From Minisyncoccia bacterium (GTDB lineage: Bacteria > Patescibacteriota > Minisyncoccia > UBA6257 > GWB1-50-10): a DNA stretch of 64,000 nucleotides. The notes beneath the pieces are model-generated. The model did no database searches. It had not been told where the DNA came from and was given only the letters and a program-made list of their open reading frames with translations. Of this stretch, positions 10,908 to 40,555 are shown in pieces. Every line of letters starts with the position of its first letter. Positions within the stretch are counted from its first letter, which is position 1. The stretch lies in the NCBI GenBank assembly GCA_049997815.1, contig JBEKVQ010000006.1, positions 2,613 to 66,612 of the forward strand. The letters run 5' to 3'. The position numbers were made by a program, and so were the translations under genes.

Positions 10908-10977
10908 TCTAGCCGCCAGTCCTAATATAGGACTGGTAAGGATATTGTTTGGAATTTGGAAGAAGAACCGGCGGTTC

Positions 10978-12270: not shown

Positions 12271-13141
12271 ATATATCCGAAATTTAATAGAGAACAATTT
12301 TAAAAAGGCGGTTTTTTGGCTCACGCTGTTTTTCGTTCTGGATATCATCGTATTCCGGCAGATTGCCGGTGGCGTGGCGGTAAAAGATAAGCTGGCGCTC
12401 TATTTTTTGCCGGTAGGGCAAGGGGATAGTGAACTTGCGGTTTTGCCCGGCGGAGTAAAAATACTTATCGACGGCGGTCCGCCGGATTCGCTTGTGTTGG
12501 CGAACCTGGATAAAGTTCTTTCGCCGCGCGACCGCTATATTGACCTCGTGATTTCAACTCATCCCCAGCAGGACCATTTTGGGGGATTGATAGAAGTTTT
12601 GAGACGTTATAAGGTCGGTACGTTCGTCTGGAACGGAGAGGTTGGCACTAACCCGGCGATGAATGATTTGCTTGCGCTCATTAAAGAAAATAACGTGCCT
12701 ATGGTTACGCTTGTGGCGGGAGACAAGATAATTTACGGAGAAAGCGAAACTGATGTCTTGTCACCTGTTTCGGGAGTGAAAGTTGATATAAACGAGGATG
12801 CGCTTGTCCTGGCACTTCAAAGCGGAGACACGAAAACGCTCTTCACGAGCGATGTCGGGGCAAAGACGGAGACGAGTATATTGAATTCTTATGCTGGACC
12901 CATAGATATCCTGAAGGTTGGCCATCACGGTTCTAAATTCTCTTCGTCGGCAAATTTCTTGAATATCCTAAGACCTAAGGTGGCGGTGATAGAGGTGGGG
13001 AAGAACAGTTACGGCCATCCGACGCCGGAGGTTCTAAATCGGCTCGCGGATATTGGTGCGCAAATTTTTCGCACCGACCAGGACGGACTCATAAAATTCG
13101 AGCCGGCGGGTGGAGCGCTCAAAATCTTCAAGGTTTTATAA
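12260..13141 (+). CDS. Metallo-beta-lactamase-fold domain protein (ComEC C-terminal MBL domain encoded separately)
   Basis: LPVGQGDSELAV...IDGGP, HPQQDHFGG and VGHHGS motifs. Overlaps the comEC end by 11 bp. Confidence 0.65.
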   Translation: MLREYIRNLIENNFKKAVFWLTLFFVLDIIVFRQIAGGVAVKDKLALYFLPVGQGDSELAVLPGGVKILIDGGPPDSLVLANLDKVLSPRDRYIDLVISTHPQQDHFGGLIEVLRRYKVGTFVWNGEVGTNPAMNDLLALIKENNVPMVTLVAGDKIIYGESETDVLSPVSGVKVDINEDALVLALQSGDTKTLFTSDVGAKTETSILNSYAGPIDILKVGHHGSKFSSSANFLNILRPKVAVIEVGKNSYGHPTPEVLNRLADIGAQIFRTDQDGLIKFEPAGGALKIFKVL

Positions 13142-20702: not shown

Positions 20703-22475
20703 ATGGCGTCTGAAACCAAAAATTGCCAAAATTGCAAAAAGGACTTCACCATTGAGCCCGATGATTTTTCGTTCTACGAAAGGATAAAAGTACCACCTCC
20801 GACTTTTTGCCCGGAGTGTCGGCTACAGAGGCGGCTCGTGTGGCGTAACGAGCGCAGTCTTTACAAACGTACCTGCGAGCTCTGCGGCGAAGTTACCATA
20901 TCCATGTATAACGAGGAAAGTCCGTACCCAGTTTACTGCTCCAAATGCTGGTGGTCGGACGGGTGGGATCCGATGCGTTACGGGAGAAATTACAATTTTT
21001 CCCGTCCATTCTTCGAACAGTTTAAAGATTTAATGCTCCGCGTGCCCCGCGTGAGCTTGGGCCATAAGGATGCCGTTGACTCTCCTTATACCAATTACAT
21101 AGTTCACGTTAAAAATTCTTATCTCGTTTTTGGCGGCCATGACGTCGAGGACTCATCTTATGTGGCGCTCCGAAGCCATTTTTTGAAAGATTGCCTGGAT
21201 GTTGATCAGATACATCATTCGGAATCATGTTACTGGAGCATGGACTGCAATAAGTGTTATCGGGTTTTCTTCAGTCAATACTGTGATGGTTGTAATGATT
21301 CGAGGTTTCTATTTGATTGTCGAAATTGTGCTAACTGTATCGCATGCGTGGGATTACGAGGCAAGCAATATCATATTTTGAACCAAGCGTATTCCAAAGA
21401 AGATTATCTCAAAAAAGTTGAAGAATTAGAGTTGGGGAGCTGGAAAGGTGTTCAAAATCTTTGGGAAAAGTGCGTGCAACTCCGATTAAAACTTCCGAGG
21501 CGTTATGCGATGATTCTGCAGTCCGCCAATGTGAGCGGCGACGACATTATGGGAGTGAGAAACTGTCGGAATTGTTTCGCGGTTTCGAATGAAAGCGAAA
21601 ATTGCGCTTATCTCTGGAGCATGGACCGCGTTAAAGAAAGTCATGACATAAATTTCAGCTATCTCACTGAATTTTCCTATGAGGGAATGAGCACGGTGGA
21701 GGGTCAAAGGATGTTTTTTGGTAATGTGGCTTGGACGAATCACGAAACCAGCTATGTGGATAATTGCCATGACTGCGGCAACCTTTTTGGGTGCGCAGGA
21801 TTGCGCAGTAAGGAATACTGCATCCTCAACAAACAATATACCAAGGAAGAGTACGAGGCCATCGTTCCTAAGGTAATAAAGCACATGAACGACATGCCCT
21901 ATAAGGATGCTAAGGACAGGATCTATAAATACGGGGAGTTTTTCCCGCCAGAACTTTCTCCCTTTGCGTACAATGAAACCATCGCTCAAGAGTATTTTCC
22001 TCTGACTAAGGAAGAAGCCTTGCGACAGGGTTATAGATGGCGAGAACCCGACACGAAACAGTACAACATCACCGAGAAGCCGGAGAATCTGCCAGATAAC
22101 ATTAAAGATGTCCCCGATTCAATCACTGAAGAGGTTATCGGTTGCGCTCATCAAGGAACTTGCACGCATCAATGTACCACCGCTTTCAAGATTACCTCCG
22201 GAGAACTCCAATTCTATCGCCATATGAATCTTCCTCTCCCTCGACTTTGCCCGAACTGCCGTCATCACGAAAGATTGGCCCAGAGAAATCCGCTACGACT
22301 ATGGTACCGCAAGTGCCAGTGCGCCGGTATTAAATCCGAAAACGGAGTTTATCAAAACACCGCAAAACATCAACACGGAACAGGGAAGTGCTTGAACGAG
22401 TTCGAGACATCATATGCACCCGAACGCAAAGAAATCGTCTATTGTGAGCAGTGTTATAATGCCGAAGTCATATGA
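20703..22475 (+). CDS. Cys-rich zinc-ribbon repeat protein, family copy 5 (590 aa)
   Basis: Starts 1 nt after the glycerate kinase stop. N-term MASETKNCQNCKKDFTIEPDDFSFYERIKVPPPTFCPECR. C-term NEFETSYAPERKEIVYCEQCYNAEVI. Confidence 0.7.
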   Translation: MASETKNCQNCKKDFTIEPDDFSFYERIKVPPPTFCPECRLQRRLVWRNERSLYKRTCELCGEVTISMYNEESPYPVYCSKCWWSDGWDPMRYGRNYNFSRPFFEQFKDLMLRVPRVSLGHKDAVDSPYTNYIVHVKNSYLVFGGHDVEDSSYVALRSHFLKDCLDVDQIHHSESCYWSMDCNKCYRVFFSQYCDGCNDSRFLFDCRNCANCIACVGLRGKQYHILNQAYSKEDYLKKVEELELGSWKGVQNLWEKCVQLRLKLPRRYAMILQSANVSGDDIMGVRNCRNCFAVSNESENCAYLWSMDRVKESHDINFSYLTEFSYEGMSTVEGQRMFFGNVAWTNHETSYVDNCHDCGNLFGCAGLRSKEYCILNKQYTKEEYEAIVPKVIKHMNDMPYKDAKDRIYKYGEFFPPELSPFAYNETIAQEYFPLTKEEALRQGYRWREPDTKQYNITEKPENLPDNIKDVPDSITEEVIGCAHQGTCTHQCTTAFKITSGELQFYRHMNLPLPRLCPNCRHHERLAQRNPLRLWYRKCQCAGIKSENGVYQNTAKHQHGTGKCLNEFETSYAPERKEIVYCEQCYNAEVI

Positions 22476-24259
22476 CCTCCGAAACTAGAAATTGCCAAAA
22501 CTGCAAGCAAAACTTCGTCATTGAATCCGACGATTTTGACTTTTACGAAAAAATGAAGGTTCCGGCGCCGACGTTTTGTCCCGATTGCCGGTTGGTTCGA
22601 AAATTGATCTGGAGGAACGAGCGCGTTCTATACCGGCGCGAGTGCGACCTTTGCAACAAATCCGTCATCTCTATTTATCCGAAAGAAAGCCCGCTAAAAG
22701 TATATTGCCATGATTGCTGGTGGGGAGATAAGTGGGATCCGCAGGTGTACGCAGCAAAATTCAATCCCAGTAAGCCGTTCTTTGAACAGTATCGAACGCT
22801 TGTCGAATCCGTTCCGGTTATAAATCTTTTCAATACCAATCCGGTCAATTCCGAATATTGTAATTACGCCAGCAATAGTAAGAATTGCTACTTATTCGTC
22901 GGCGGTAGGGAATGCGAGAATATTCTATATGCCAACCGAGTATTTTCCTCCAAGGACTCGATCGATCTCTACGATGCCAATAAGTTGGAGTTGTCCTACG
23001 AGGCAATCCAGTGCAAAAATTGCAATCGCTTGTTCTTCGGACAGTTATGCACGGATTGCAATGATTCGTGGTTTCTCTACGACTGCCGGGGCTGCCAGAA
23101 CTGTTTTGGCTGCGCGAATCTTCGCGGGCAGCAATATCACATCTGGAATCAGCCCTATCAGAAAGAGGATTACTTCGCGAAGCTGAAAGAATTCGATCTG
23201 GAAAGCCGCGCCGGCTTGGAAAAGGCAAAGAAACTCGCGGAAGAACATCTCGCCAAATATATCCGCCGTTATGCCCACATCGTCAATTCTCCGGGGAGCA
23301 CGGGGGACAATCTTTACAATTGCCGGAACTGCAAATATTGCTTCGATTTGACCGGCTCCGATTCGGAGAGCTGCAAATTCACGCACTTCGCCGGCGTCGG
23401 CATGAAGGACTCCTACGATAATTACGGGGCGCCCCGCGCCGAACAGGTTTACGAAACCCTGGCCATCGGCTTTGAATCCAACGATAACTCGCATTATTAC
23501 TTCAGTTATTTCGTTAGAGGAAGCCACGACATCTATTATTCTTACAATTGCGTTTCCTCCTCATATCTCTTTGGATGCGTCGGATTGCGCAATAAGCAAT
23601 ATCGCATTTTGAACAAACAGTATACAAAGGAGGAATATGAAGAACTTGTTCCGAAAATCATTCAGCAAATGAATGATATGCCGTTCATGGATAAGAGGGG
23701 ATTGGTCTATAAATACGGAGAATTTCCGCCGGCGGAGTTCTCGCCATTCGCTTATAACGAAACCATTGCCCAGGATTATTTTCCCATTACTAAAGATGAG
23801 GCAATCAAGCAGGGTTATCTTTGGAAGGACCCGGAGACCAAGGCATATCAGGTAACCATTCCGGCGGATAAGATACCGGAGCGCATCAAAGACGTTCCCG
23901 ATGCCATTACTTCCGAGGTTATCGCTTGCGCCCACGCAGGGAAGTGCACTCACCAGTGCACCACCGCTTTCCGTATCATTCTGGAAGAGCTTCAATTTTA
24001 CCGAAGGATGGATCTGCCTCTGCCGAGATTGTGTTCCAATTGCCGCCATTATGAGAGATTGGCACAGAGGAATCCAATGAGATTATGGCACCGAAAATGC
24101 CAGTGTGCTGGGGCAAAATCCGAGGGTGGTGCCTATCAAAATACCGTCAAGCATCAGCACCAAGACGGCCACTGTCCGAACGAATTTGAGACGAGTTATT
24201 CCCCAGAGAGGAAGGAAATCATCTACTGCGAGCAGTGCTATAACAGCGAGGTAATATGA
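22472..24259 (+). CDS. Cys-rich zinc-ribbon repeat protein, family copy 6 (595 aa)
   Basis: ATGA overlap. N-term MTSETRNCQNCKQNFVIESDDFDFYEKMKVPAPTFCPDCR. C-term NEFETSYSPERKEIIYCEQCYNSEVI. Confidence 0.7.
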   Translation: MTSETRNCQNCKQNFVIESDDFDFYEKMKVPAPTFCPDCRLVRKLIWRNERVLYRRECDLCNKSVISIYPKESPLKVYCHDCWWGDKWDPQVYAAKFNPSKPFFEQYRTLVESVPVINLFNTNPVNSEYCNYASNSKNCYLFVGGRECENILYANRVFSSKDSIDLYDANKLELSYEAIQCKNCNRLFFGQLCTDCNDSWFLYDCRGCQNCFGCANLRGQQYHIWNQPYQKEDYFAKLKEFDLESRAGLEKAKKLAEEHLAKYIRRYAHIVNSPGSTGDNLYNCRNCKYCFDLTGSDSESCKFTHFAGVGMKDSYDNYGAPRAEQVYETLAIGFESNDNSHYYFSYFVRGSHDIYYSYNCVSSSYLFGCVGLRNKQYRILNKQYTKEEYEELVPKIIQQMNDMPFMDKRGLVYKYGEFPPAEFSPFAYNETIAQDYFPITKDEAIKQGYLWKDPETKAYQVTIPADKIPERIKDVPDAITSEVIACAHAGKCTHQCTTAFRIILEELQFYRRMDLPLPRLCSNCRHYERLAQRNPMRLWHRKCQCAGAKSEGGAYQNTVKHQHQDGHCPNEFETSYSPERKEIIYCEQCYNSEVI

Positions 24260-26034
24260 CCTCCGAAACTAGAAATTGCCAAAACTGCAAACAATCCTTC
24301 ACGATTGAGCCGGATGATTTCAGTTTCTACGAAAAAATCCACGTGCCGGTGCCTACCTGGTGCCCGAACTGCCAACTGCAGCGGAGATTTTGTTTTAGGA
24401 ACGAACGGACGCTTTATAAGCGCAAGGAGTCGCTCCGGGGCGAGGTGGTCATCTCTAATTATTCGCCGGACCTGAACGTCCCGATCTATAACCAGCAGGA
24501 TTGGTGGAGCGATTCGTGGGACCCGATGATGTACGGGAAATCATACGATTTTTCGAAACCGTTCTTTCTGCAGATGAAAGAACTCTCGAGAGCAGTGCCG
24601 TGGCCGGCGCTCCTGAACTGGAATGCGGTAAACAGCGATTACTGTGTTTACACCACGGACAACAAGGATTGCTACCTGGTTTTCGGCGGGGACTACAACG
24701 AAAATTGTTTCTGCGCCACGCATAACTTCCATTCTAAGGACAGTGGCGAATTATTTTGGGTGGAAAAGTGCGAGCTTTGCTACGAGCTCATCTACAGCGA
24801 AAACTGTTTCCGGGTGAAATACGGTCGGTACGTTAACAACTGCACCGATTGCGCGTTCATGTTGAGTTGCACGAACTGCACCGATTGCATCGGGTGCGTG
24901 GGGCTGAAGAACAAATCCCACTGCATCCTGAACAAACAATATTCCAAGGAGGAATACGAAAATAAAGCGAAAGGAGCGGCGCTGGATACGCGGGCGGGGC
25001 TCGAGAAGTTCAAAAGGCAATTCGAGGAACTGCGCCTGTCCCAACCAACCCGTTTCGCGGAGATCTATAAATCGGTCGGTTGTACCGGGGACAATATCCA
25101 CAGCAGCAAGAACTGCGTCAACTGTTTCGACGTCTTCGACGGGGCGGAGGATTTGAAGAATGCGGTTCTCGCCGGATGGGGGAGCAAAGACGGACGGAAT
25201 GTGAACCACTTCGGACATAAATCGGAGCTGGTATACGACTCCCTCATCACCTTCGATAATTCGCAGCGGGTGCGATTTTGCGCTTCCACGTCCACTTCGC
25301 AGGACATTGAGTATTCCATGAACTGCCGGAGTTCCCGGAATCTCTTCGGTTGCGTAAATCTTCGGGGGAAGGAGTATTGTATCCTGAACAAGCAGTACGA
25401 CAAGGATTCGTACGAAAAGACGCGTTCTCAGATCGTCGAGCACATGAAGGCGATGCCGTATAAGGATATGCAGGGCTATATGTACACGTATGGTGATTTC
25501 TTCCCGCCGGAACTTTCCCTTTTTGCCTATAACGAGACGTCGGCCCAAGAGTACTTCCCGTTGACCAAAGAAGAAGCGTTGAGGTTGGGATACGAATGGC
25601 GCGAGGCCGAGAACCGAGAGTATACAGCCACGAAACCAGCCAGTTCAATGCCGGATAACATAGCGGAAGTAGATGACTCAATAACCAAGGAAGTCATTGG
25701 ATGTTCCCATAATGGGGAATGCAATCAGCGCTGCGCCAAGGCGTTCCGCATCGTTCCGCAGGAACTCCAATTGTATCGCCAGCTTAACGTCCCGCCGCCG
25801 ATACTTTGTCCAAGTTGTCGCCACTATGAACGTATGAGCCAAAAAAATCCCCTAAAGCTTTGGCATCGAAAATGCCAGTGTTCGGGAGTTAGATCCGAAA
25901 ACGGCGTTTATCAGAATACCGTTAAACATTTTCACGAAGATGGTCATTGTCCCAACGAGTTTGAGACCTCTTTTGCTCCCGAGCGGAAAGAAATAGTGTA
26001 CTGCGAGCAGTGTTATCAAACGGAAGTAGCATGA
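24256..26034 (+). CDS. Cys-rich zinc-ribbon repeat protein, family copy 7 (592 aa)
   Basis: ATGA overlap. The first 36 nt are identical to copy 6. C-term NEFETSFAPERKEIVYCEQCYQTEVA. Confidence 0.7.
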   Translation: MTSETRNCQNCKQSFTIEPDDFSFYEKIHVPVPTWCPNCQLQRRFCFRNERTLYKRKESLRGEVVISNYSPDLNVPIYNQQDWWSDSWDPMMYGKSYDFSKPFFLQMKELSRAVPWPALLNWNAVNSDYCVYTTDNKDCYLVFGGDYNENCFCATHNFHSKDSGELFWVEKCELCYELIYSENCFRVKYGRYVNNCTDCAFMLSCTNCTDCIGCVGLKNKSHCILNKQYSKEEYENKAKGAALDTRAGLEKFKRQFEELRLSQPTRFAEIYKSVGCTGDNIHSSKNCVNCFDVFDGAEDLKNAVLAGWGSKDGRNVNHFGHKSELVYDSLITFDNSQRVRFCASTSTSQDIEYSMNCRSSRNLFGCVNLRGKEYCILNKQYDKDSYEKTRSQIVEHMKAMPYKDMQGYMYTYGDFFPPELSLFAYNETSAQEYFPLTKEEALRLGYEWREAENREYTATKPASSMPDNIAEVDDSITKEVIGCSHNGECNQRCAKAFRIVPQELQLYRQLNVPPPILCPSCRHYERMSQKNPLKLWHRKCQCSGVRSENGVYQNTVKHFHEDGHCPNEFETSFAPERKEIVYCEQCYQTEVA

Positions 26035-27827
26035 ACGCCGAGATAAAAACCTGTCAAAATTGCCATAAAGAATTCGTAATTGAACCCGACGATTTCACGT
26101 TCTACGAAAAGATGCAGGTGCCGGCGCCGATGTTTTGCCCGCAGTGCCGATTCCAGCGGCGGCTTTCTTTTTGCAACGAGAGGCATTTATACAAAATAAA
26201 TTGCGGATTGTGTGGCAAGGGAATGATCGCGATGTATCCTCCGAATACGAAATTCCCGGTTTACTGCCTACCTTGTTACCGGAGCGACAACTGGGACCCA
26301 CTCTCTTACGGGAGGGAGTATAACTTTGACCAGCCGTTCTTCGAACAATTCAAGGAATTGAAGTCACATGTGCCCCGGGCATCGCTCGTCCGGCAGGGGG
26401 ACATCGCGGGCAGCGAATACTGCAACCGGGCGAGTTATAACAAAGATTGCTACCTGATAATCCGGGCGAACTATAACGAGAATTCGCTCTATTCCTACAA
26501 CTTGTGGGAGTCCCGGGACAGCATGGATTGTTTTAACGTCCACAAATCCGAGCTGGCTTATAACTGCATCGATTCCATCGATTGCTATCACGTCCAATAT
26601 TGCCAGGAATGCAGATTATGCCGGGATTCCATTCTTCTTTTCGACTGCCGGAATTGCACGAGTTGTATCGGGTGCGTCGGATTGCGGAATAAGCAGTATC
26701 ACATTCTGAACCGCCCGTATACGAAAGAAGATTACGAGAACGAACTGCGTGGTTTGAGTTTGAATACTGTGGCGGGGATGACGGCTCTGGCGGGGCGATT
26801 CAAGGTGATTTTAGATAAAGCAATTCGCGAGTCCGAGATCGAAACGAATTGCGTCCGGTCCACCGGGAATTGGCTCACCGACTGCAAAGATGTTCTGGAT
26901 TCGTACCAGTGCCGGGATTTTGAGAACGGAAAATATCTGCTTTCCGTCATCGGGGCCAAGGATTGCATGGACTACTCGTACTGGGGCCGGGAAACGGAGC
27001 TCGTCTACGAATCCTCGAATTGCGGATACAACGTATCGAGAATTCGGTTTGCGAACGAATCCTGGGATGCCTGCCATGACCTGACCTATTGCGACAACTG
27101 CTATTCGTCGGCCAATCTCTTCGGTTGCGTCGGCTTAAGGAAGAAGGATTATTGCATCCTGAATAAGCAGTACACGAAAGAGGAGTATGAAAAAATGATG
27201 CCGAGGATAGTCGAGCATATGAACTCCATGCCGTACACGGATAAGAGGGGAAGGGTCTACAAGTTCGGGGAATTCTTCCCAACCGAGCTTTCAGCTTCTC
27301 CTTATAACATGACGGCGGCTTACGAGAATTTTCCGTTGAATAGAGAGGAAATTCTAAAGCAGGGATATGCCTGGGAGGATTTCAAGGAAAAAGAGTATAC
27401 GGTGACAAAATCCTGGCGCGACCTTCCCGAAAGTATCGAAACGGTGGACGACAGCATTCTTAAGGAGGTCATTCTTTGCAAGACCCAGGATGAAGGCAGT
27501 AAGGGCATTATCGAGGAGCGCAGCTGCACCAAGGCGTTCCGGATAACGCCGGAGGAATTCTCGTTCTATCGGAGAATGAATATCCCGCTCCCGCACTCCT
27601 GTTTTAATTGCAGACATTATGAGCGTTTCAAGAAAAGAAATCCGCTGAAGCTCTGGCACCGCAAATGCCAGTGCGCCGGCGCCAAATCCGAGAATGAAAT
27701 TTACCAAAACGTCGCCCAACACCCGCACGGAGCAGGCCACTGTCCCAATGATTTTGAAACCAGTTACAGTCCGGAAAGAAGGGAGATAGTGTATTGCGAA
27801 CAATGTTATAATAGCGAAGTAGTTTAA
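26031..27827 (+). CDS. Cys-rich zinc-ribbon repeat protein, family copy 8 (~598 aa)
   Basis: ATGA overlap. N-term MNAEIKTCQNCHKEFVIEPDDFTFYEKMQVPAPMFCPQCR. C-term NDFETSYSPERREIVYCEQCYNSEVV. Confidence 0.7.
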   Translation: MNAEIKTCQNCHKEFVIEPDDFTFYEKMQVPAPMFCPQCRFQRRLSFCNERHLYKINCGLCGKGMIAMYPPNTKFPVYCLPCYRSDNWDPLSYGREYNFDQPFFEQFKELKSHVPRASLVRQGDIAGSEYCNRASYNKDCYLIIRANYNENSLYSYNLWESRDSMDCFNVHKSELAYNCIDSIDCYHVQYCQECRLCRDSILLFDCRNCTSCIGCVGLRNKQYHILNRPYTKEDYENELRGLSLNTVAGMTALAGRFKVILDKAIRESEIETNCVRSTGNWLTDCKDVLDSYQCRDFENGKYLLSVIGAKDCMDYSYWGRETELVYESSNCGYNVSRIRFANESWDACHDLTYCDNCYSSANLFGCVGLRKKDYCILNKQYTKEEYEKMMPRIVEHMNSMPYTDKRGRVYKFGEFFPTELSASPYNMTAAYENFPLNREEILKQGYAWEDFKEKEYTVTKSWRDLPESIETVDDSILKEVILCKTQDEGSKGIIEERSCTKAFRITPEEFSFYRRMNIPLPHSCFNCRHYERFKKRNPLKLWHRKCQCAGAKSENEIYQNVAQHPHGAGHCPNDFETSYSPERREIVYCEQCYNSEVV

Positions 27828-32285: not shown

Positions 32286-34029
32286 ATGAATTTGGAAACC
32301 AGAAACTGCCAAAATTGTAAGCAATCCTTCGTCATTGAACCGGAGGATTTTGCGTTTTATGAAAGGATGACTGTTCCGCCTCCGACTTTTTGTTGGGAGT
32401 GCCGGATGCAACGGCGTTTTGTTTGGAGAAACGAACGCACATTGTACAAGAGAAAGTGTGATTCTTGCGGAAGGAGTTCACTCTCCATGCATCATCCCAA
32501 AGTCCCCATTGTCGCTTACTGCCAGGAGTGTTGGCTTTCCGACAAGTGGGATGCGTTATCTTTTGGGGTAGAGTATGATTTTTCAAGGAGTTTTTTCGAA
32601 CAAATTCGGGATTTGTTGCTGAGAGTCCCCCGAAGGATGCTTTTTGTCGTAAATTCCAAAAACTCGCCCTTCACAAATTACACCAGAAATGCAAAGAATG
32701 TCTACCTCTCCGTTTCAGCTTTGGAGTCAGAAAATATTTTCTTTTCGAAGAACACGCTGAGAACATTCTGGGCCTGCGATTGTTTTGACATAAATGATTC
32801 CGAAAACTGTTACAGTGCTATAAAGGGTGATAAAAATTACAATTCGAAGTTTTTATTCGAGAGCCGTAATTGCATTGACTGTGCTTTCCTTTATGACTGC
32901 GTGAATTGTAGGGGTTGTATACTTTCCTCGAATTTAAGGAATAAAGAATTCTACGTAAGAAATCGACCGTGCACCAAGGAAGAGTATCAAAAAGTACTTA
33001 CCTCACTTAACCTTGGAAGTGCCTTGTCTACTAAAAGTGCTGAATTGGAACTGGAGAGAATTAAGCAAGCCGCTCTCCATAAATATGCCCAACTGGTCAA
33101 TGCTCCGAATTGTTCGGGTGACAACATAGCTGATTCTAAGAACTGTCACTATTGTTTCGACGGCAGGAATGATGAAAATTTGAAGTTTGGTTTTAGAGAC
33201 CCAGGTGTCAAGGATTCTATGGATGTAGTGAATGGTGGCCCACAGGCAGAACTTTTTTATGAATTTATCGGTGGGGGAGGGATGAACAGTAGGTCCTTAA
33301 TGTTTACTGTTAATGCTGACGTCGGTCTTGATGATATTCGTTATACGGAATATTGCTCTAAATCCTCCCACCTCTTCGCCTGCATCGGCCTCCGTTCCAA
33401 GCAATACTGCATCCTAAACAAGCAATATTCGAAGGATGAGTACGAATCCCTGGTCCCCAAGATCATTGCCCACATGAACACTCAGCCCTACATAGACCAG
33501 AAGGGCAGGATATATAGATACGGCGAGTTCTTCCCCCCGGAGCTCTCTCCCTTCGCCTACAACGAAACCATCGCCCAGGAGTACTTCCCCCTGACCAAAG
33601 GAGAAGCAGAGAAACAGGGCTATAGATGGAAAGACCCCGATACCCAAGGAATACGTGATAACCATCCTCCCAACCAAGCTTCCTGACCATGTGAAGGACG
33701 TAAAGGACGACATCCTATCCCAGACCATAGGGTGTGTCCACGAAGGCAAGTGCACCCACCAATGCACCACCGCTTTCAGAATCATCCCCGAAGAACTCTC
33801 CTTCTACCGAAGGATGAACCTCCCTTTACCCCGACTCTGCCCTAACTGCCGGCACTACGAACGCCTAGCTCAGAGAAATCCTTTGAAGCTGTGGCATAGG
33901 CAATGTATGTGCGATAAGACCACCCATACCCATAAGGGCCACTGTCTGAACGAATTCGAGACGAGTTACAGCCCAGAGCGGAAAGAAATCGTGTATTGCG
34001 AATCCTGTTATAATTCAGAGGTAGTATGA
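32286..34029 (+). pseudogene. Cys-rich zinc-ribbon repeat protein, family copy 9. It is disrupted by a +1 frameshift in a CCC run (33643-33645) and split into ORFs 32286-33686 and 33655-34029.
   Basis: The two ORFs together reconstitute a full-length family member (...GYRWKDPDT | KEYVITILPTKLPDHVKDVKDD...). The break coincides with a homopolymer. Confidence 0.6.
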
Positions 34030-35225
34030 AGATAAAAAGCATTGAAATAAAAGAAATATTGGATTCGCGGGGTGAGCCGACGATAGAGGTGAACGTAACC
34101 GGCGAAAACAACGAGAGCACTTCCGCTCAAATCCCTTCCGGGAAGAGCCGGGGGAAGAACGAAGCGGCGGTACTGAAACCGGCGGAAGCGGGGCATGTTT
34201 TGGAAAAGACGATAAAACCGAACATCGCCGACCGGAACTTCGAATCCATCGGTGAACTGGATGCGTTTCTGATAGCTCTGGACGGCACCGACAACAAAGA
34301 AAGATTGGGCGGGAACCTTATTTTGGGCATCTCGATCGCTTTTGCGCGCCTTATGGCCAAACAGCAGGAAAAAGAGCTGTGGCAGGTTTTGAACGAAGAA
34401 TTCTTTGAGGGTAAAAAATATTACGAGAAGCCCCTGATATTCTCCAACCTCATAAACGGCGGAGCGCACGCCAAGAACAACCTGGATATCCAGGAATATA
34501 TGGTCGTGGTGAGGCCGTACCCGTCGTATAAAATGGCCATCAGAGAGCTTGAGGATTTTTACGCTAAGCTCGGAGATTTTCTGAAAGAGAAGTTCAAGCT
34601 GGAAAAATTGGCGTTGGGCGACGAGGGCGGATATTCACTGAAATTTTCCAATAATTTCGAACCGATAGAAGTGCTTTCGGAGATGATAGAAAAATTCGAC
34701 ATTACGAAGATATTCTCGATCGCGCTGGACTGCGCCGCGAACGGTTTTTACAAGGATGGACTGTACAGCTTCGGCAAGCAGAAGTTGAATTTCATGGAGA
34801 TGGCCGAAATATATCGGGTTTATTTTCAAACCGTTCCGCTCCTGGTGTCCATAGAAGACCCGTTTGCCGAGGATGACCACGCTGGTTTCAAAAGATTGCA
34901 TTCTTTGTACAAAAACAAGCTGGTGGTGGGGGACGATTTGGCGGTAACGAACCCCCTCGTGATCGAAGAGGCCGTGAAGGAGAAATTGATGAGCGGGGTG
35001 ATAATCAAGCCGAATCAGGTTGGCACCGTGACCGAAACCTGCGAAGCGATGAAGATAGCTCACGTGAACGGTTTAAAGACCATCGTCTCCCACCGCTCGG
35101 GGGAGGAGAATGACCCGTTCATAATTCACTTCGCCAAAGCCGGCGGAGCTTATGGCGTAAAGATCGGCGCGCCGGTCCCGAGCCGGATATCAAAATATAT
35201 CGAACTGGAAAGGCTCTATGGCTAG
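34026..35225 (+). CDS. eno: Enolase (phosphopyruvate hydratase), divergent and short (399 aa)
   Basis: N-term IKEILDSRGEPTIEVNV...PSGKSRGKNEA. C-term SHRSGEENDPFIIHFAKAGGAYGVKIGAP...SKYIELERL. ATGA overlap with the copy 9 stop. Confidence 0.75.
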   Translation: MKIKSIEIKEILDSRGEPTIEVNVTGENNESTSAQIPSGKSRGKNEAAVLKPAEAGHVLEKTIKPNIADRNFESIGELDAFLIALDGTDNKERLGGNLILGISIAFARLMAKQQEKELWQVLNEEFFEGKKYYEKPLIFSNLINGGAHAKNNLDIQEYMVVVRPYPSYKMAIRELEDFYAKLGDFLKEKFKLEKLALGDEGGYSLKFSNNFEPIEVLSEMIEKFDITKIFSIALDCAANGFYKDGLYSFGKQKLNFMEMAEIYRVYFQTVPLLVSIEDPFAEDDHAGFKRLHSLYKNKLVVGDDLAVTNPLVIEEAVKEKLMSGVIIKPNQVGTVTETCEAMKIAHVNGLKTIVSHRSGEENDPFIIHFAKAGGAYGVKIGAPVPSRISKYIELERLYG

Positions 35226-36993
35226 CGAAACCCGTGAGTGCCAAAATTGCAATCGATCCTTCGTCATTGAACCGGAGGATTTCAGTTTCTACGAGCGGAT
35301 AAAAGTTCCACCACCGACGTGGTGTCCGGAATGCAGGATGATAAGAAGAATGACCTGGCGGAACGAAAGGAATCTTTACAGAATCGCCTGCGGTCTTTGC
35401 GGGAAAAGCATAATCTCGCTCTACCCACCCGAGAGCGGCGTCAAAGTTTATTGCAGTCAATGCTGGTTTTCGGACAAATGGGATGCATCGAATATTAATT
35501 TAGATTACGATTTTTCCCGGCCGTTCTTTTCCCAGTGGCACGATTTGTTCATGAAAGCGCCCCTAATCGCCATATGGTCGATAAGAGGCAACGTCAACTC
35601 GGAATACTGCAGTTATGCCGCGGATAACAAGAATTGTTATCTGTCATCCTCGGTTCTTTGGAGCGAAAACGTGTCTTACTCTTATTCGGTCGACAGGGAC
35701 AGGGATTGCATTGATTGTGCTTTCCTCAATGATTCTGAGCTTTGCTACGAGAATCTGAACGGCGCGAATAACTACAGGTCCGTTTTTCTCATTCAATCAA
35801 GGAATTGCCTGGATTCCTCATTCCTTTTCGACTGCGTCAATTGCCAGAATTGTTTCTTGAGCTGGAATTTGAGGAACAAAAGATTCGTTTTTAGGAATCA
35901 GCAGCTTGATGAAGCATCGTATAAAGAAAAATTGAAGGAGTTTGAGATGGGAAGCTCGGCAAATTTAGTGAGATTATTTGATGAATTCACTAAGATTTCG
36001 AAAGAAAAAGCCCTGCATCGTTACGCCAATATAATAAAGTCCCAAAAAGCGACGGGGGATAACATAGAAAATTCCAAGAACGTTAAGGAAGTTTTTGAGG
36101 CTTATGAAGATGAAAACGCATTTTACGGCGTAAGGGTATTTAAGGACAAGGATGTTGTGGATGCGATTGGCGTCGTCGGATCGGAGCTCGGCTACGAGTT
36201 GATCGCCCCGGGTTTGGCGAGCTATATGAGCCTGTTCGTAATGTTAAACGATTCCTGCCGCGAAGTGTCTTTTACGAATTACTGCTTCAATTGTTCCAAC
36301 TGTTTTGCTTGTATCGGTCTCAAGAACAAGCAATACTGCATCCTGAATAAGCAATACACCAAGGAAGAGTACGAATCACTGGTTCCCCGTATCATTGCCC
36401 ACATGAACGACATGCCCTACATAGACAAGAAGGGCAGGGTCTACCGATACGGTGAGTTCTTCCCCCCGGAATTATCTCCCTTCGCCTACAACGAAACCAT
36501 CGCCCAGGAGTACTTTCCCCTCACGAAAGGAGAGGCCATAGAGAAGGGCTACCGCTGGAAGGAGCCGGAAGAGAAAAAATATGAGATTACCATCCTTAAT
36601 GACCGGATCCCCGATAATATAAAGGACGTTCGCGACGATATCGTGAATGAGGTCATAGAATGCGCCCATAAGGGAGAATGCAATGAGCACTGCACTCAGG
36701 CCTTCAAGATGACGCCACCCGAAGTTCAATTCTATAAACGGATGAATCTTCCGTTGCCCCGGTTATGTCCAAATTGCCGGCATTACCAGCGTTTGAGGAG
36801 AAGAAATCCTTTAAGGCTTTGGCACCGGAAATGCGCCTGCGCCGGCGCAAAATCCAATAATGGTTCATATATGAACACCATTTCCCACCAGCACGGAGCG
36901 GGGAAGTGCCCGAACGAGTTCGAAACCTCCTACGCTCCGGAGCGGAAAGAGATAGTGTATTGCGAAAGTTGCTACAACACCGAAGTCGTATGA
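35218..36993 (+). CDS. Cys-rich zinc-ribbon repeat protein, family copy 10 (591 aa)
   Basis: N-term MASETRECQNCNRSFVIEPEDFSFYERIKVPPPTWCPECR. C-term NEFETSYAPERKEIVYCESCYNTEVV. Overlaps the eno stop by 8 nt. Confidence 0.7.
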   Translation: MASETRECQNCNRSFVIEPEDFSFYERIKVPPPTWCPECRMIRRMTWRNERNLYRIACGLCGKSIISLYPPESGVKVYCSQCWFSDKWDASNINLDYDFSRPFFSQWHDLFMKAPLIAIWSIRGNVNSEYCSYAADNKNCYLSSSVLWSENVSYSYSVDRDRDCIDCAFLNDSELCYENLNGANNYRSVFLIQSRNCLDSSFLFDCVNCQNCFLSWNLRNKRFVFRNQQLDEASYKEKLKEFEMGSSANLVRLFDEFTKISKEKALHRYANIIKSQKATGDNIENSKNVKEVFEAYEDENAFYGVRVFKDKDVVDAIGVVGSELGYELIAPGLASYMSLFVMLNDSCREVSFTNYCFNCSNCFACIGLKNKQYCILNKQYTKEEYESLVPRIIAHMNDMPYIDKKGRVYRYGEFFPPELSPFAYNETIAQEYFPLTKGEAIEKGYRWKEPEEKKYEITILNDRIPDNIKDVRDDIVNEVIECAHKGECNEHCTQAFKMTPPEVQFYKRMNLPLPRLCPNCRHYQRLRRRNPLRLWHRKCACAGAKSNNGSYMNTISHQHGAGKCPNEFETSYAPERKEIVYCESCYNTEVV

Positions 36994-38771
36994 ACTCCGA
37001 AACTAAAACCTGTAAAAACTGTAGCTCGTCCTTCGTCATTGAACCGGACGACCTTACTTTTTACGAGCGGATAAAAGTTCCGCCACCGACTTTCTGCCCG
37101 GAGTGCCGAAGCCAGCGGAGGCTTTCATGGCGGAACGACATGAATTTGTACACCCGTCCCTGTGATTCGTGCGGGAAGAGGATGGTTTCTCTTTATTCTC
37201 CGGATTCCGGGATGACGGTCTATTGCGTGAAATGCTGGTGGAGCGATAAATGGAACCCGAAGGATTATGCAATGGAATATGATTTTTCTAAGCCGTTCCT
37301 CAGGCAATTCGACGAATTGCAGAAAAAGGTGCCAATACTCGCGCTTGCGAACGATGACGGTCTCGTCGGAGGAAGCGTGAATTGTGAATACAATCATGAC
37401 TTTGCCCGAGCGAAGAATTGCTACATGGTTTTCGTGGCCTGGAAGCTCCAGGATTCCATGTACAGTCACTATATCGTTGACAGCAAGGGGATGGTGGATT
37501 GTTTGAGCAGCTGGGACGAGTCCGATTCGGTTTATGAGGGAATATTCGCCGAGAGGTGCTATAAATGCTGGTACGTTTTTTACTCCGTCGCTCTTTCGGA
37601 TTGCGCATTTTGCCTGGATTCTAGGGATTCTTCCGATTGCTTCATGTGCACCGGCTTGCGCCACAAGCGGTATTACTTCAAGAACAGGCCATATTCCAAG
37701 GAGGAATACGAAAAAATCCTGGCCGATTACAAACTCGATACGTATAGTGGCGTGGAACGGGCCAAGGAGGAATTTAGGGAGATGCTCTATTTGAAGCCGC
37801 GCAAATTTTCCATACTGCGCAACACCGTAAATTCAACCGGGGATTATCTGACCAATTGTAAAAATTGCCGAGACTGTTTTTTGGTCCAGCGCGGAGAGAA
37901 CCTTCGGTATGTAGAGAGCTCGGATACGCCCGTGGACTCTTACGATCTAAGCACGGGAGGAGAATTGCAGTATTGCTATGAAGGAATTACGCCGGACCAC
38001 TCGTATATGGGCCGATTTGAAATATTTTCGTGGAAGAATACGGATGTTTTTTATCTGGACGGCTGCCATTCCTGCAAGGATGTTTTTGGGTGTTGCGGGC
38101 TCAAAAAAGCGCAGTATTGTATTTTGAATAAGCAGTACACGAAAGAGGAGTACGAAAAAATTTTGCCTAAGGTCATAGAGCACATGAATGCGATGCCGTA
38201 TAAGGACAAAAACGGCGTGGAATACCGCTTCGGCGAGTTTTTCCCCGCAGAGTTGTCTTACTTCGGTTATAACGAAAGCGTTGCCCAAGAACGGATTCCG
38301 CTAAGTCGCGAACAGGCGCTCGCCAGCCATTTTAACTGGCGGGACAAGTTACAGCTGACGACCGGCCAGGAGACAGTCAAGACAGAAAATTTGCCCGATT
38401 CCATAGATGACGTAAAGGATTCCATATTGAATGAGGTTCTGGCCTGCATTGGATGCAAAAGGAATTACCGTATTGTTCTTCAGGAATTGCAATTTTACCG
38501 GCGAATGAAGATCCCTTTGCCCCGAAAATGTTTCTATTGTAGGCATCAGGCTCGCGTGAATTTTCGGAATCCCTTCAAGCTTTGGCACCGGAAATGCGCC
38601 TGCGTGGGTTCGACAAGCTCACCACAGGCTGGTCCCGGCTTTGTTTATCAAAATACAGTGAAGCATTTCCATGGCGATAAGGAATGCCCCAATGAATTTG
38701 AGACCTCATACGCGCCTGAGCGGAAAGAGGTGGTATATTGCGAGCAGTGTTATAATTCAGAAATCGTATGA
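36990..38771 (+). CDS. Cys-rich zinc-ribbon repeat protein, family copy 11 (~593 aa)
   Basis: ATGA overlap. N-term MNSETKTCKNCSSSFVIEPDDLTFYERIKVPPPTFCPECR. C-term NEFETSYAPERKEVVYCEQCYNSEIV. The upstream part of the long ORF call (from 36906) overlaps copy 10 and is rejected. Confidence 0.7.
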   Translation: MNSETKTCKNCSSSFVIEPDDLTFYERIKVPPPTFCPECRSQRRLSWRNDMNLYTRPCDSCGKRMVSLYSPDSGMTVYCVKCWWSDKWNPKDYAMEYDFSKPFLRQFDELQKKVPILALANDDGLVGGSVNCEYNHDFARAKNCYMVFVAWKLQDSMYSHYIVDSKGMVDCLSSWDESDSVYEGIFAERCYKCWYVFYSVALSDCAFCLDSRDSSDCFMCTGLRHKRYYFKNRPYSKEEYEKILADYKLDTYSGVERAKEEFREMLYLKPRKFSILRNTVNSTGDYLTNCKNCRDCFLVQRGENLRYVESSDTPVDSYDLSTGGELQYCYEGITPDHSYMGRFEIFSWKNTDVFYLDGCHSCKDVFGCCGLKKAQYCILNKQYTKEEYEKILPKVIEHMNAMPYKDKNGVEYRFGEFFPAELSYFGYNESVAQERIPLSREQALASHFNWRDKLQLTTGQETVKTENLPDSIDDVKDSILNEVLACIGCKRNYRIVLQELQFYRRMKIPLPRKCFYCRHQARVNFRNPFKLWHRKCACVGSTSSPQAGPGFVYQNTVKHFHGDKECPNEFETSYAPERKEVVYCEQCYNSEIV

Positions 38772-40555
38772 ATCCGGAAGCCAAAACCTGCCAAAATTGC
38801 AAGCAAAATTTCACGATTGAACCGGACGATTTTGCGTTCTACGAGAAAATCCACGTTCCACCGCCGACTTTCTGTCCGGAGTGCCGGATGCAAAGAAGGT
38901 TGATTTGGCGGAACGAACGGACGCTTTATAAGCGCAAGTGCGACGCGCCGGGACACTCCGAAGACATCATTTCGATGTATTCACCGGAGCAAACGTTTCC
39001 CATATACGATCATGCTTATTGGTACGGCGACGGTTGGGATTCCGGAAGCTACGGCCGGGATTACGATTTCTCGAAGCCGTTCTTTCCTCAGTTTAAGGAG
39101 TTGCTTCACGCGGTGCCCCACGTAACGCTTTTCGACAGTAAATCGGTCAATTCCAATTACTGCAACATCGTCGTGGAACAGAAGAATTGCTATCTCGTGA
39201 GCGCCGGCTGGGGGAATGAGGACTCCTTATACAGTAACCGCATTGCTTATTGCAAGGACACGGTTGATTCGTACGTTTGCCACAAGACCGAATTCGGATA
39301 CGAGAACGTCTATTGCAAGGAATCGAACCGGCTTATCTTCAGTTTGAGGAGCGAAGGATGCGTCGATTCTTATTTCCTTTACGATTGCCGGAATTGCTCC
39401 GATTGCATCGGGTGCGCGAATTTGAGGAATAAGAAATACTGCATCTTCAACCAGCAGTACACGAAGGAGGAATATCAGAAAAAGGCGTCGGAAATGAATC
39501 TCGGAAGTTACAGATCTCTTTTGGAACTCTCGGCTAAGTTCGAAAAAATACGGCTAAACGCCGTGAGCCGTTTCGCTTCTCTTTATAACACCCAAAACGT
39601 CATCGGGGACAACATCGAAGATTCGAGGAATTGCTATTACTGCTTCGACCTTGACGGCGACGCGGAAAATTCCAAATATTGCCACTGGTCCACGAGGGGA
39701 TTACGCGACTGCTATGATTCTGGGCCCGGCGCCGGCGGAAATTCAGAGTTGCTTTATGAAGGCATCAGCATCGGCGTGGTGAACTCAAGATGCAAGCTGG
39801 GCGTCATCGTGTGGTACTCGCACGATATGGAGTACTGCTACAATTGCCAGGATTCCCATGACCTCTTCGGCTGTGTCGGCATGCGCAAGAAAGAATACTG
39901 CGTTTTCAATAAACAATATTCGAAGGAGGAGTACGAAAAATTGGTATCGAAGATAAAGAAACAAATGGATAATGTGCCCTATGTCGATTCTAGAGGAAGA
40001 ATTTACAAATACGGCGAATTTTTCCCGCCGGACATAAGCCCGTTCACCTATAATGAAACCGTCGCCCAGGACTACATGCCGCTCACGAAAGATGGCGCTT
40101 TAAAGGGCGGATATAAATGGCGGGAGATGGAGAGCCGTGGCCACAAACCCACCATTTCTTCCGCTGACCTGCCGGATACTATTCAGGACGTTCCCGATTC
40201 AATAACCAAAGAAACCATAGGTTGCGCTCACGAAGGCAAGTGCAATGACCAGTGCACTGTCGCCTTCAGGATTATTTCGGAGGAATTGGCATTTTATCGC
40301 CGAATGAATCTTCCCTTGCCTCATCTATGTCCCAATTGCCGCCATTATCAGAGGCTGGCGGAAAGGAATCCCCTGAAGCTGTGGCATCGTAAGTGCCAGT
40401 GTGCCGGAACCGGCTCGGAAAACGGAATGTATAAAAATACCGTTCAGCACCAGCACGGAGATGGCCATTGCCCGAACGAATTTGAAACATCTTACGCTCC
40501 GGACCGCAAGGAAATCGTCTACTGCGAAAATTGCTACAATAGCGAAGTGGTATAA
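38768..40555 (+). CDS. Cys-rich zinc-ribbon repeat protein, family copy 12 (595 aa)
   Basis: ATGA overlap. N-term MNPEAKTCQNCKQNFTIEPDDFAFYEKIHVPPPTFCPECR. C-term NEFETSYAPDRKEIVYCENCYNSEVV. Confidence 0.7.
   Translation: MNPEAKTCQNCKQNFTIEPDDFAFYEKIHVPPPTFCPECRMQRRLIWRNERTLYKRKCDAPGHSEDIISMYSPEQTFPIYDHAYWYGDGWDSGSYGRDYDFSKPFFPQFKELLHAVPHVTLFDSKSVNSNYCNIVVEQKNCYLVSAGWGNEDSLYSNRIAYCKDTVDSYVCHKTEFGYENVYCKESNRLIFSLRSEGCVDSYFLYDCRNCSDCIGCANLRNKKYCIFNQQYTKEEYQKKASEMNLGSYRSLLELSAKFEKIRLNAVSRFASLYNTQNVIGDNIEDSRNCYYCFDLDGDAENSKYCHWSTRGLRDCYDSGPGAGGNSELLYEGISIGVVNSRCKLGVIVWYSHDMEYCYNCQDSHDLFGCVGMRKKEYCVFNKQYSKEEYEKLVSKIKKQMDNVPYVDSRGRIYKYGEFFPPDISPFTYNETVAQDYMPLTKDGALKGGYKWREMESRGHKPTISSADLPDTIQDVPDSITKETIGCAHEGKCNDQCTVAFRIISEELAFYRRMNLPLPHLCPNCRHYQRLAERNPLKLWHRKCQCAGTGSENGMYKNTVQHQHGDGHCPNEFETSYAPDRKEIVYCENCYNSEVV

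Follow-up and report, generated by a model that had tools for sequence, protein, structure and literature searches.

Duplicated two-finger cassettes flanking a duplicated core in a large family of cysteine-rich proteins from Patescibacteria

The 64,000-nucleotide stretch of the Minisyncoccia bacterium contig JBEKVQ010000006.1 analysed here (positions 2,613 to 66,612; hereafter the window, in whose coordinates all positions are given) contains twelve paralogous genes for cysteine-rich proteins, all on the same strand. Our results show two ends that are almost certainly duplicates of each other, each consisting of a cassette of two predicted metal-binding fingers, on either side of a core that is itself duplicated. 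An earlier note, made from the sequence alone, had described each protein as a sandwich of homologous zinc-ribbon modules around a repeat core. The sandwich and the duplicated ends are borne out by our analysis, but the repeated unit is not a single ribbon: it is a two-finger cassette, with finger A matching A' and finger B matching B'. Taken as a whole, the data are probably best explained by an ancient soluble paralog that went through two independent internal duplications, carries zinc cassettes as its heads and works together with an ATPase.

The analysis centres on copy 12 (c12), the last of the twelve paralogs, for which an identical protein is present on 7 public metagenome contigs. Its features are as follows.

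38768-40555, forward strand: copy 12, an open reading frame (ORF) of 595 amino acids with 35 Cys
38777-38923, forward strand: finger A, residues 4-52; C8-x2-C11, 24 residues, C36-P-x-C39-R
38924-39037, forward strand: finger B, residues 53-90; degenerate (CDAPGHSED...IYDHAYW), with three of the four Cys lost
39173-39496, forward strand: core repeat 1, residues 136-243; short strands every ~12 residues, beta-solenoid-like in the AlphaFold2 model
39617-39955, forward strand: core repeat 2, residues 284-396; homologous to core repeat 1
39956-40207, forward strand: conserved linker, residues 397-480; MPYxDxxGRxYxYGEFFPxELSPFAYNET
40208-40393, forward strand: finger A', residues 481-542; C486-x-H-x3-C492-x3-C496, 24 residues, C521-P-x-C524-R
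40394-40552, forward strand: finger B', residues 543-595; C543, 24-residue insert, C568, 17 residues, C586-x2-C589, terminal helix YNSEVV

In the proposed architecture, the protein would thus run from fingers A and B through a beta-solenoid-like repeat 1, a helical hairpin, repeat 2 and the linker to fingers A' and B'.

Homology of the two ends and of the core repeats

The two segments quoted in the earlier note are present in c12, at residues 21-62 and 506-547. Smith-Waterman alignment of residues 1-100 with residues 471-595, the intra-protein comparison that the note had named as a check, was significant, with a score of 119 compared to 27.5 +/- 4.9 for 2000 shuffles, none of which reached it (z 18.7). 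In the 10 full-length copies tested, z ranged from 11.8 to 20.6. Profile-profile comparison gave the same result: hhalign matched 11 N-terminal with 11 C-terminal blocks of the window copies over 84 columns (probability 99.4%, E 8e-22), and a 71-sequence family alignment yielded 99.1% (E 6.5e-19). The similarity spans more than the quoted segments, from the first knuckle (C8/C11) through the second finger to the last residues. The AlphaFold2 models, another check named earlier, show the same order of secondary structure at both ends (strand, strand, helix, helix, strand, strand, helix). When the cassette profile was compared with 1.84 billion representative proteins, 4160 proteins (50%-identity representatives) matched at E<=1e-3. 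Each of the best 150 of these 4160 matches contained at least two matching stretches, and which end gave the top-scoring stretch, N or C, varied from protein to protein.

The repeated unit became clear from finger-wise comparison. Finger A aligned with A' (hhalign 99.1%, E 1.5e-18) and finger B with B' (97.1%, E 5.5e-11), but A against B reached only 13%, by which the idea that the cassette itself is a tandem repeat was rejected. Therefore, one two-finger cassette was duplicated. Both cassettes conserve ~15 residues that are not ligands, including the pairs R40/R525, R44/R529 and R48/R533, which form an Arg ladder along the helix that follows the second Cys pair in A (R40/R44/R48) and in A' (R525/R529/R533). 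The degenerate finger B of c12 aligns with the canonical CxxC-x17-CxxC pattern found in the N-terminal finger B of copies 2, 4, 5, 6, 8, 9, 10 and 11; this pattern also occurs in B' of copy 4.

An alternative explanation might be convergence, as four-Cys sites with CxxC and CPxC knuckles look alike without any duplication. Such knuckle motifs are common, Cys-Cys pairs score high, and weak matches to many unrelated zinc-finger Pfam families were indeed obtained (E 0.001-0.1). Because Cys-Cys matches could inflate the alignment score, the comparison was run again with the Cys columns dropped and the register fixed. The 55 ungapped columns still contained 18 non-Cys identities, and their score of 82 stayed 8.2 standard deviations above the shuffles (-41 +/- 15; 0/20000 as high). 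Moreover, two distinct finger types occur in the same order and with the same 24- and 17-residue spacings at both ends, and hhalign joins the N to the C end while keeping A apart from B. Convergence of the two ends is refuted by the finger-wise hhalign comparison and the Cys-free test, and we consider it extremely improbable.

The repeat core that the earlier note placed between the modules is present and proved to be internally duplicated as well, since hhalign aligned core repeat 1 with core repeat 2 over 108 columns (99.8%, E 1.4e-30). The order cassette-core-core-cassette implies at least two separate events, as a single tandem duplication of cassette plus core cannot yield it. The linker between core and C-terminal cassette has a mean identity of 50% among the window paralogs, compared to 36-37% for the cores, and its residues M400, G416, P420, N429 and W451 are invariant. 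Core repeat 1 ends with C207-x2-C210-x2-C213-x2-C216, followed by LRNKxYCIFNxxYxKEEY. Across the family this Cys motif (39386-39415) is kept at 84-95%, and core repeat 2 retains just its first and last positions (C360, C369), followed by C378.

The core resembles beta-solenoid proteins such as the left-handed beta-helix enzymes gamma-carbonic anhydrase and LpxA in its predicted short strands with a regular period, and the weak core matches found by Foldseek were all to left-handed beta-helices. However, these matches were not significant (E at least 0.47, template modelling (TM) score < 0.2), and the period is ~12 instead of 18. The core also differs from beta-solenoid proteins in being Cys-rich and in having no match to any hexapeptide-repeat Pfam family.

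The fingers were modelled both in full-length c12 (predicted local distance difference test (pLDDT) 84, predicted TM score 0.83) and in an isolated cassette (pLDDT 83). In the full-length model, finger A is made of strands 4-7 and 14-17 and helices 19-28 and 37-45. In both models the first Cys pairs lie in hairpins, C8/C11 in that of strands 4-7 and 14-17 and positions 58/61 in that of strands 54-57 and 64-69, and the second Cys pairs lie at the start of helices 37-45 and 80-85. Because the second Cys pairs start helices and the Pfam relatives are only 'probable treble clef' families, the fingers look more like treble clefs than like classical zinc ribbons in their predicted secondary structure. 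The zinc-ribbon label given earlier holds in the sense of homologous metal-binding modules, but probably not in the sense of the classical fold. The Foldseek searches count against a firm assignment. The full c12 model had no significant match in the PDB (best E 0.47, left-handed beta-helix enzymes, TM < 0.2) or in BFVD (best E 0.024, small phage 'zinc-ribbon' proteins), and the best PDB matches of the isolated cassette (E 0.11) were generic C2H2, PHD and HypA fingers. As Foldseek gave nothing significant, the fold class is assigned solely from predicted secondary structure.

Constraint, variation and age of the family

The other members of the family in the window are listed below; their identity to c12 is 37-55%, and the window paralogs contain 33-40 Cys each.

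18-1370, forward strand: copy 1 (c01), 5' end cut by the window; A' ligands lost (KCLETG...RYYPDVR), B' short with an 18-residue spacer
1386-3131, forward strand: copy 2 (c02), all 16 canonical Cys kept; B' insert short
7465-9237, forward strand: copy 3 (c03), N-terminal finger B without its Cys, like c12
9234-10907, forward strand: copy 4 (c04), A' and B' uninterrupted (CISC...; CAKC-x17-CEQC)
20703-27827, forward strand: copies 5-8 (c05-c08; 20703-22475, 22472-24259, 24256-26034 and 26031-27827), in tandem and joined by ATGA
32286-34029, forward strand: copy 9 (c09), frameshifted at ~33642-33646, with the C-terminal cassette in another frame to 34029
35218-36993 and 36990-38771, forward strand: copies 10 and 11 (c10, c11), tandem genes joined to each other and to copy 12 by ATGA overlaps

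The family was sampled in 77 family-seeded loci from species-representative genomes, which contained 214 family ORFs with up to 9 per 22 kb. Cysteines and spacers were counted in the 167 full-length members outside the window, with the following result.

Finger A: four Cys kept in 98% (164/167), 24-residue spacer in 166/167
Finger B: four Cys kept in 46% (76/167), 17-residue spacer in 124/167
Finger A': four Cys kept in 85%, 24-residue spacer in 149/167
Finger B': four Cys kept in 98% (163/167), 17-residue spacer in 159/167

The ligands of the N-terminal finger B are thus lost in 54% of the family members elsewhere, and those of A and B' almost never. Within the window, three or four Cys ligands of this finger are lost in copies 3, 7 and 12 (in c12 at residues 58-90, 38939-39037). 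Conservation among the window paralogs was 0.65 for A, 0.55 for A' and 0.69 for B', compared to 0.36-0.37 for the cores and 0.30 for the helices.

The family is large and confined to Patescibacteria (Parcubacteria/Paceibacteria lineages), in that the sampled loci nearly all carry Patescibacteria names. Among the 77 loci were Staskawicz-, Ryan-, Nomura-, Jorgensen-, Giovannoni-, Lipton-, Brenner- and Wolfebacteria and Paceibacterota, and some loci were labelled Saccharibacteria. The family comprises >8000 clusters at 90% identity, and tandem arrays occur in many Parcubacteria lineages.

Both the cassette duplication and the radiation of the paralogs are old, and the paralogs predate the species. 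This follows from two results. The identity between N- and C-terminal cassettes was the same within proteins (28.2%) as between proteins (28.0%; p 0.20), and every window paralog has a nearer relative in another genome than any inside the window. The same identities led us to reject co-variation of the two cassettes within a protein. The two-finger cassette was duplicated once, before the family radiated, and the Cys ligands, the 24- and 17-residue spacings and the ~15 shared non-ligand residues have been retained in both copies ever since. A few relatives have a reduced architecture. In P0196 and P0232 the core is absent and the N cassette is fused to the C cassette (185-199 amino acids), and P0177, P0217 and P0223 have a single core repeat (359-391 amino acids). 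These coreless and one-core proteins look like internal deletion derivatives.

The C-terminal fingers occur in long and short forms. The long forms, present in most window copies, contain insertions of ~9 (A') and ~24 (B') residues inside the first knuckles. Such insertions are confined to the first knuckles of the C-terminal fingers, and those in B' range from 4 to 29 residues. Among the 167 relatives, the first knuckle of A' has a 9-residue spacer in 85, and a plain CxxC first knuckle occurs in 37 for A' and in 29 for B', that is, in 17-22% of the family members. In copy 4, both A' and B' have plain CxxC knuckles. Because their spacing matches that of the N-terminal fingers and of the known finger family TIGR04272, the uninterrupted form is probably the simpler, ancestral state.

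The earlier note correctly quoted the endings of copies 4 and 1, but took them as a sign of ongoing module loss and replacement. On such a view, both copies would be decaying and ends would be lost or swapped at present, possibly via conversion between ends or between paralogs. Some observations point in this direction. Finger A' of copy 1 (1095-1367) lacks its second Cys pair (RYYPDVR for RLCPNCR) and has a single Cys in its first knuckle, with B' kept, while the closest external relative of this copy has an intact A'. In addition, copy 9 is frameshifted, and rare deletion variants such as P0196, P0232, P0177, P0217 and P0223 exist elsewhere. The short form of copy 4 tells a different story. 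It is uninterrupted rather than truncated, it fits the spacing of the N-terminal fingers and TIGR04272, and it is shared with the closest relative found (59% identical, in Jorgensenbacteria locus L007) as well as with the minority of the family noted above. Furthermore, paralogs that are nearer to proteins of other genomes than to one another, and N-C identities that are the same within and between proteins, speak against recent exchange of ends. Ongoing loss is therefore very unlikely as an explanation for these endings, and old paralogs with conserved forms of the C-terminal cassette are the reading that we prefer.

Metal sites, the C-terminal tail and the neighbouring ATPase

The fingers are predicted to bind zinc, which we consider quite likely. 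Members of the CxxC-x17-CxxC domain family in Methanosarcina mazei bind zinc according to inductively coupled plasma mass spectrometry (PMC12704099). Each intact finger would hold one structural zinc through its four Cys, up to four Zn per protein, and the protein could do without the N-terminal finger B, which would often lack metal, for example in copy 12. The insert of B' (c12 residues 543-568, 40394-40471) has a conserved C-x-C...H-x-H pattern (C545...H561-x-H563). Its CxC and HxH occur together in 83 sequences, and CxC occurs without HxH in 3. The insert of A' contributes H488 and C492. Possibly, the inserts of A' and B' form one or more additional metal sites.

Alternatively, the Cys sites might hold iron or Fe-S, with rubredoxin-like ends and the CxxCxxCxxC motif of the core, which would make this a redox or electron-transfer family. 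The high Cys content and the conservation of C207, C210, C213 and C216 are compatible with this idea, and the CPxC knuckle resembles those of rubredoxins. Yet the sole sequence relatives with metal data bind zinc, and no match to rubredoxin or ferredoxin families was found. The N-terminal finger B, and sometimes A', loses its Cys while the protein persists, which suits structural rather than catalytic sites. An iron-based function thus seems quite unlikely.

With zinc as the predicted metal, the fingers, which are the most conserved parts of the protein, would expose the Arg-ladder helix (R-x3-R-x3-R) that immediately follows the second Cys pair. They might be two binding heads that stay constant and share one partner, a nucleic acid or a protein, and the poorly conserved solenoid core would provide whatever differs between the paralogs. 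The corresponding helix of GATA and nuclear-receptor fingers makes contact with DNA, which offers a lead. Nucleic acid as the ligand is a tentative prediction. Two points weigh against it: most window copies are mildly acidic overall (isoelectric point 5.8-6.6), which is unusual for nucleic-acid binders, and the conserved Arg could instead be paired within the protein, through salt bridges to D21/E506 and D88/E593, which are conserved to the same degree.

A candidate partner is encoded directly after copy 2.

3176-5074, forward strand: TrwB/VirD4-like P-loop ATPase with a CxxC-x17-CxxC finger at residues 451-483

The ATPase passes the thresholds of PF10412 (49.5 bits), PF12696 (27.6 bits) and PF23477 (55.9 bits), and scores above the cut-off of TIGR04272 (59.3 bits, E 2e-16). 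Its nearest solved structure is TrwB. In line with the TrwB/VirD4 coupling proteins (PF10412, PF12696; PDB 1E9R), both its P-loop and its TraG-D_C regions exceed the Pfam thresholds. In contrast to these coupling proteins, it has no hydrophobic segment that could act as an N-terminal membrane anchor, it has an added zinc finger, and within the window it lies beside zinc-cassette arrays instead of virB4 or a relaxase. The finger is homologous to B of the family (hhalign 97.1%, E 6e-11; 94.7% with B') but not to A. When a finger-B hidden Markov model was run over 945 non-family ORFs, only these ATPases matched, and the finger A profile had no match in the other neighbouring proteins.

The genomic association between family and ATPase runs in both directions. 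With the window added to the 77 family-seeded loci, 26 of the 78 contained the ATPase, compared to 8 for the next commonest non-family neighbour. The ATPase gene almost always shares the strand of the family array, which it often flanks on one or both sides. Conversely, among 80 ATPase-seeded metagenome loci, family genes occurred in 43 and lay within 600 bp in 27; among the loci of at least 12 kb, they occurred in 26 of 39. A CxxC-x17-CxxC finger was present in 75 of the 139 ATPase ORFs. The long form of the ATPase (at least 520 amino acids) has this finger and the short form (440-500 amino acids) is without it (loci L005-L077, L079-L158). The family genes adjacent to the ATPase are of many types, and one paralog type as its specific partner was therefore rejected.

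Same-strand flanking, often within tens of bases, and a finger homologous to B make this soluble TrwB/VirD4-like ATPase the most likely partner or co-worker of the family. By guilt by association, we rate a functional link between the two as about an even chance. Several points weaken it. The sampled loci are phylogenetically related, so that neighbourhood counts are not independent; the ATPase was seen in only about a third to half of the loci; and some orthologs stand alone among housekeeping genes. A 2025 preprint on the candidate phyla radiation (CPR) reported 5713 VirD4-type homologs in 2918 genomes, of which only 148 were near virB4, and raised a possible exaptation for other functions; these orphan type IV coupling protein (T4CP) homologs were noted without a proposed partner (10.1101/2025.01.22.634366). 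More speculatively, the family and the soluble orphan ATPases might form an unrecognised two-component system, in which the shared finger docks the two or binds a common nucleic acid, and the dozen ancient paralogs are alternative adaptors or clients of the ATPase. We regard this as a doubtful but attractive possibility. If true, it would explain thousands of CPR coupling-protein homologs that lie away from secretion channels.

The presence of a coupling-protein-like neighbour also bears on the C-terminal tail, EIVYCEQCY..EV[VI], which the earlier note likened to a recognition or sorting signal. One could imagine that the adjacent ATPase recognises this tail and hands the paralogs to type IV secretion or pilus-type export. 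In favour of this, the tail (...YCEQCYxxEV[VI]) hardly varies, the protein always ends ~6 residues past the last Cys, and the family is strongly linked to these ATPases. Canonical VirD4-type coupling proteins select their substrates by signals at the C-terminus. Genes of type IV secretion systems (T4SS) are widespread in Patescibacteria (bioRxiv 10.1101/2025.01.22.634366).

Our results favour a simpler view, in which the tail is the last zinc knuckle and helix of B'. It aligns with the internal VYCxxCWWSDxWD segment of the N-terminal finger B (Y80/Y585, W85/Y590, D88/E593) and carries two of the four B' ligands. This internal homology and the two ligands already explain its conservation, without an added signal. 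Furthermore, no signal peptide and no hydrophobic segment were detected in c12, which opens at the first knuckle (MNPEAKTCQNC) and has a highest 19-residue hydropathy mean of 1.04. Unlike proteins with LPXTG, PEP-CTERM or type IX secretion system C-terminal domain signals, c12 has neither an N-terminal signal peptide nor a C-terminal hydrophobic segment, and together with the internal homology of the tail this makes a sorting signal unnecessary. Recognition of the tail by the adjacent ATPase is conceivable, but none of our results calls for it. T4SS substrates would depend on a membrane-anchored T4CP and on a VirB4-type channel encoded in the genome. Here, the neighbour is T4CP-like but has no anchor, no VirB-type gene was found among the window ORFs scanned, and few of the CPR homologs mentioned above are near virB4. 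Cys-rich, zinc-stabilised folded proteins would also be poor candidates for export. For these reasons export of the paralogs appears unlikely, and a soluble role next to the ATPase remains our preferred reading.

Known families and genomic setting

The finger types belong to distant, functionally uncharacterised families that are known, but their doubly duplicated arrangement in a huge lineage-specific family, and its genomic partner, are new. PF23477 matched 16 of the 22 cassettes at finger B (best E 1.3e-6) and PF13451 matched 11 of the 22 at finger A at E <= 0.1 (best E 4.8e-5). The scores argue against formal membership: with curated cut-offs of 36 bits for TIGR04272, 27 bits for PF23477 and 24 bits for PF13451, copy 4 reached 21.4, 24.5 and 17.1 bits, respectively, and copy 2 reached 22.6 bits with PF23477 (N-terminal) and 18.5 bits with PF13451. 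Copy 12 had no match to TIGR04272, PF23477 or any NCBIfam model.

Fingers B and B' resemble TIGR04272/PF23477 (zf_Tbcl_2), as found in small Methanosarcina proteins and in the C-terminal part of the neighbouring ATPase, in their four Cys with 2-17-2 spacing, the G/K after the first knuckle, the mid-loop Pro and the VYC before the second knuckle. They differ in that the finger is always fused behind finger A, with the pair occurring twice per protein, that an insert of 4-29 residues interrupts the first knuckle of B' in most cases, and that the N-terminal B is often Cys-free. Similarly, fingers A and A' share with PF13451 (zf_Tbcl, a probable treble clef) two CxxC pairs with the second at a helix start. 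A phage 'putative zinc-ribbon domain protein' in BFVD superposes over 40 columns at 0.6 A, a match that is not significant (E 0.41). Different from PF13451 are the family signature FYE+hxVPxPxxCPxCRxxRRxxxRN and the 24-residue spacer.

The family is absent as a Pfam or NCBIfam model, and its profile had no match among PDB sequences. PADLOC gave no match and PHROGs just weak matches to families of unknown function, which lends no support to a role in any known defence system. Literature searches on CxxC-x17-CxxC, on zinc-ribbon or cysteine-rich proteins of Parcubacteria, CPR or Patescibacteria, and on the Pfam and TIGR accessions returned nothing on the family.

Internal duplication by itself is ordinary protein evolution. 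It is the size of the family, its cost in a minimal genome and the ATPase link that merit experimental follow-up. Patescibacteria have genomes of ~1 Mb (an 888-kb chromosome among the relatives), yet ~21 kb of a 40-kb stretch is devoted here to twelve old, unannotated paralogs. The architecture of duplicated cassettes around a duplicated solenoid provides a basis for a family model and points to conserved surfaces as targets for mutation. The genomic association, seen in both directions, offers a concrete, testable partner for both the family and the soluble coupling-protein-like ATPases.

The paralogs are interspersed with housekeeping genes: mnmA, a split comEC, aspS, and genes for adenylate kinase, glycerate kinase, phosphoenolpyruvate synthase and 2-hydroxyacid dehydrogenase, enolase and alaS. 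Six junctions between tandem paralogs are ATGA start/stop overlaps (9234, 22472, 24256, 26031, 36990 and 38768). In addition, copy 3 (start 7465) overlaps the end of mnmA, and copy 10 (start 35218) overlaps the end of the enolase gene. These junctions and overlaps suggest that the paralogs are co-transcribed and translationally coupled with the housekeeping genes.

In copy 9, one extra base in GATACCCAAGG (~33642-33646) shifts the frame. The protein is not truncated: the full C-terminal cassette resumes in another frame (33621-34029) and ends at 34029, overlapping the start of the enolase gene. The frameshift is either a sequencing error or the mark of a recent pseudogene. The split comEC consists of two overlapping ORFs just downstream of copy 4, one with Competence/DUF4131 (10801-12270) and one with metallo-beta-lactamase (12260-13141).

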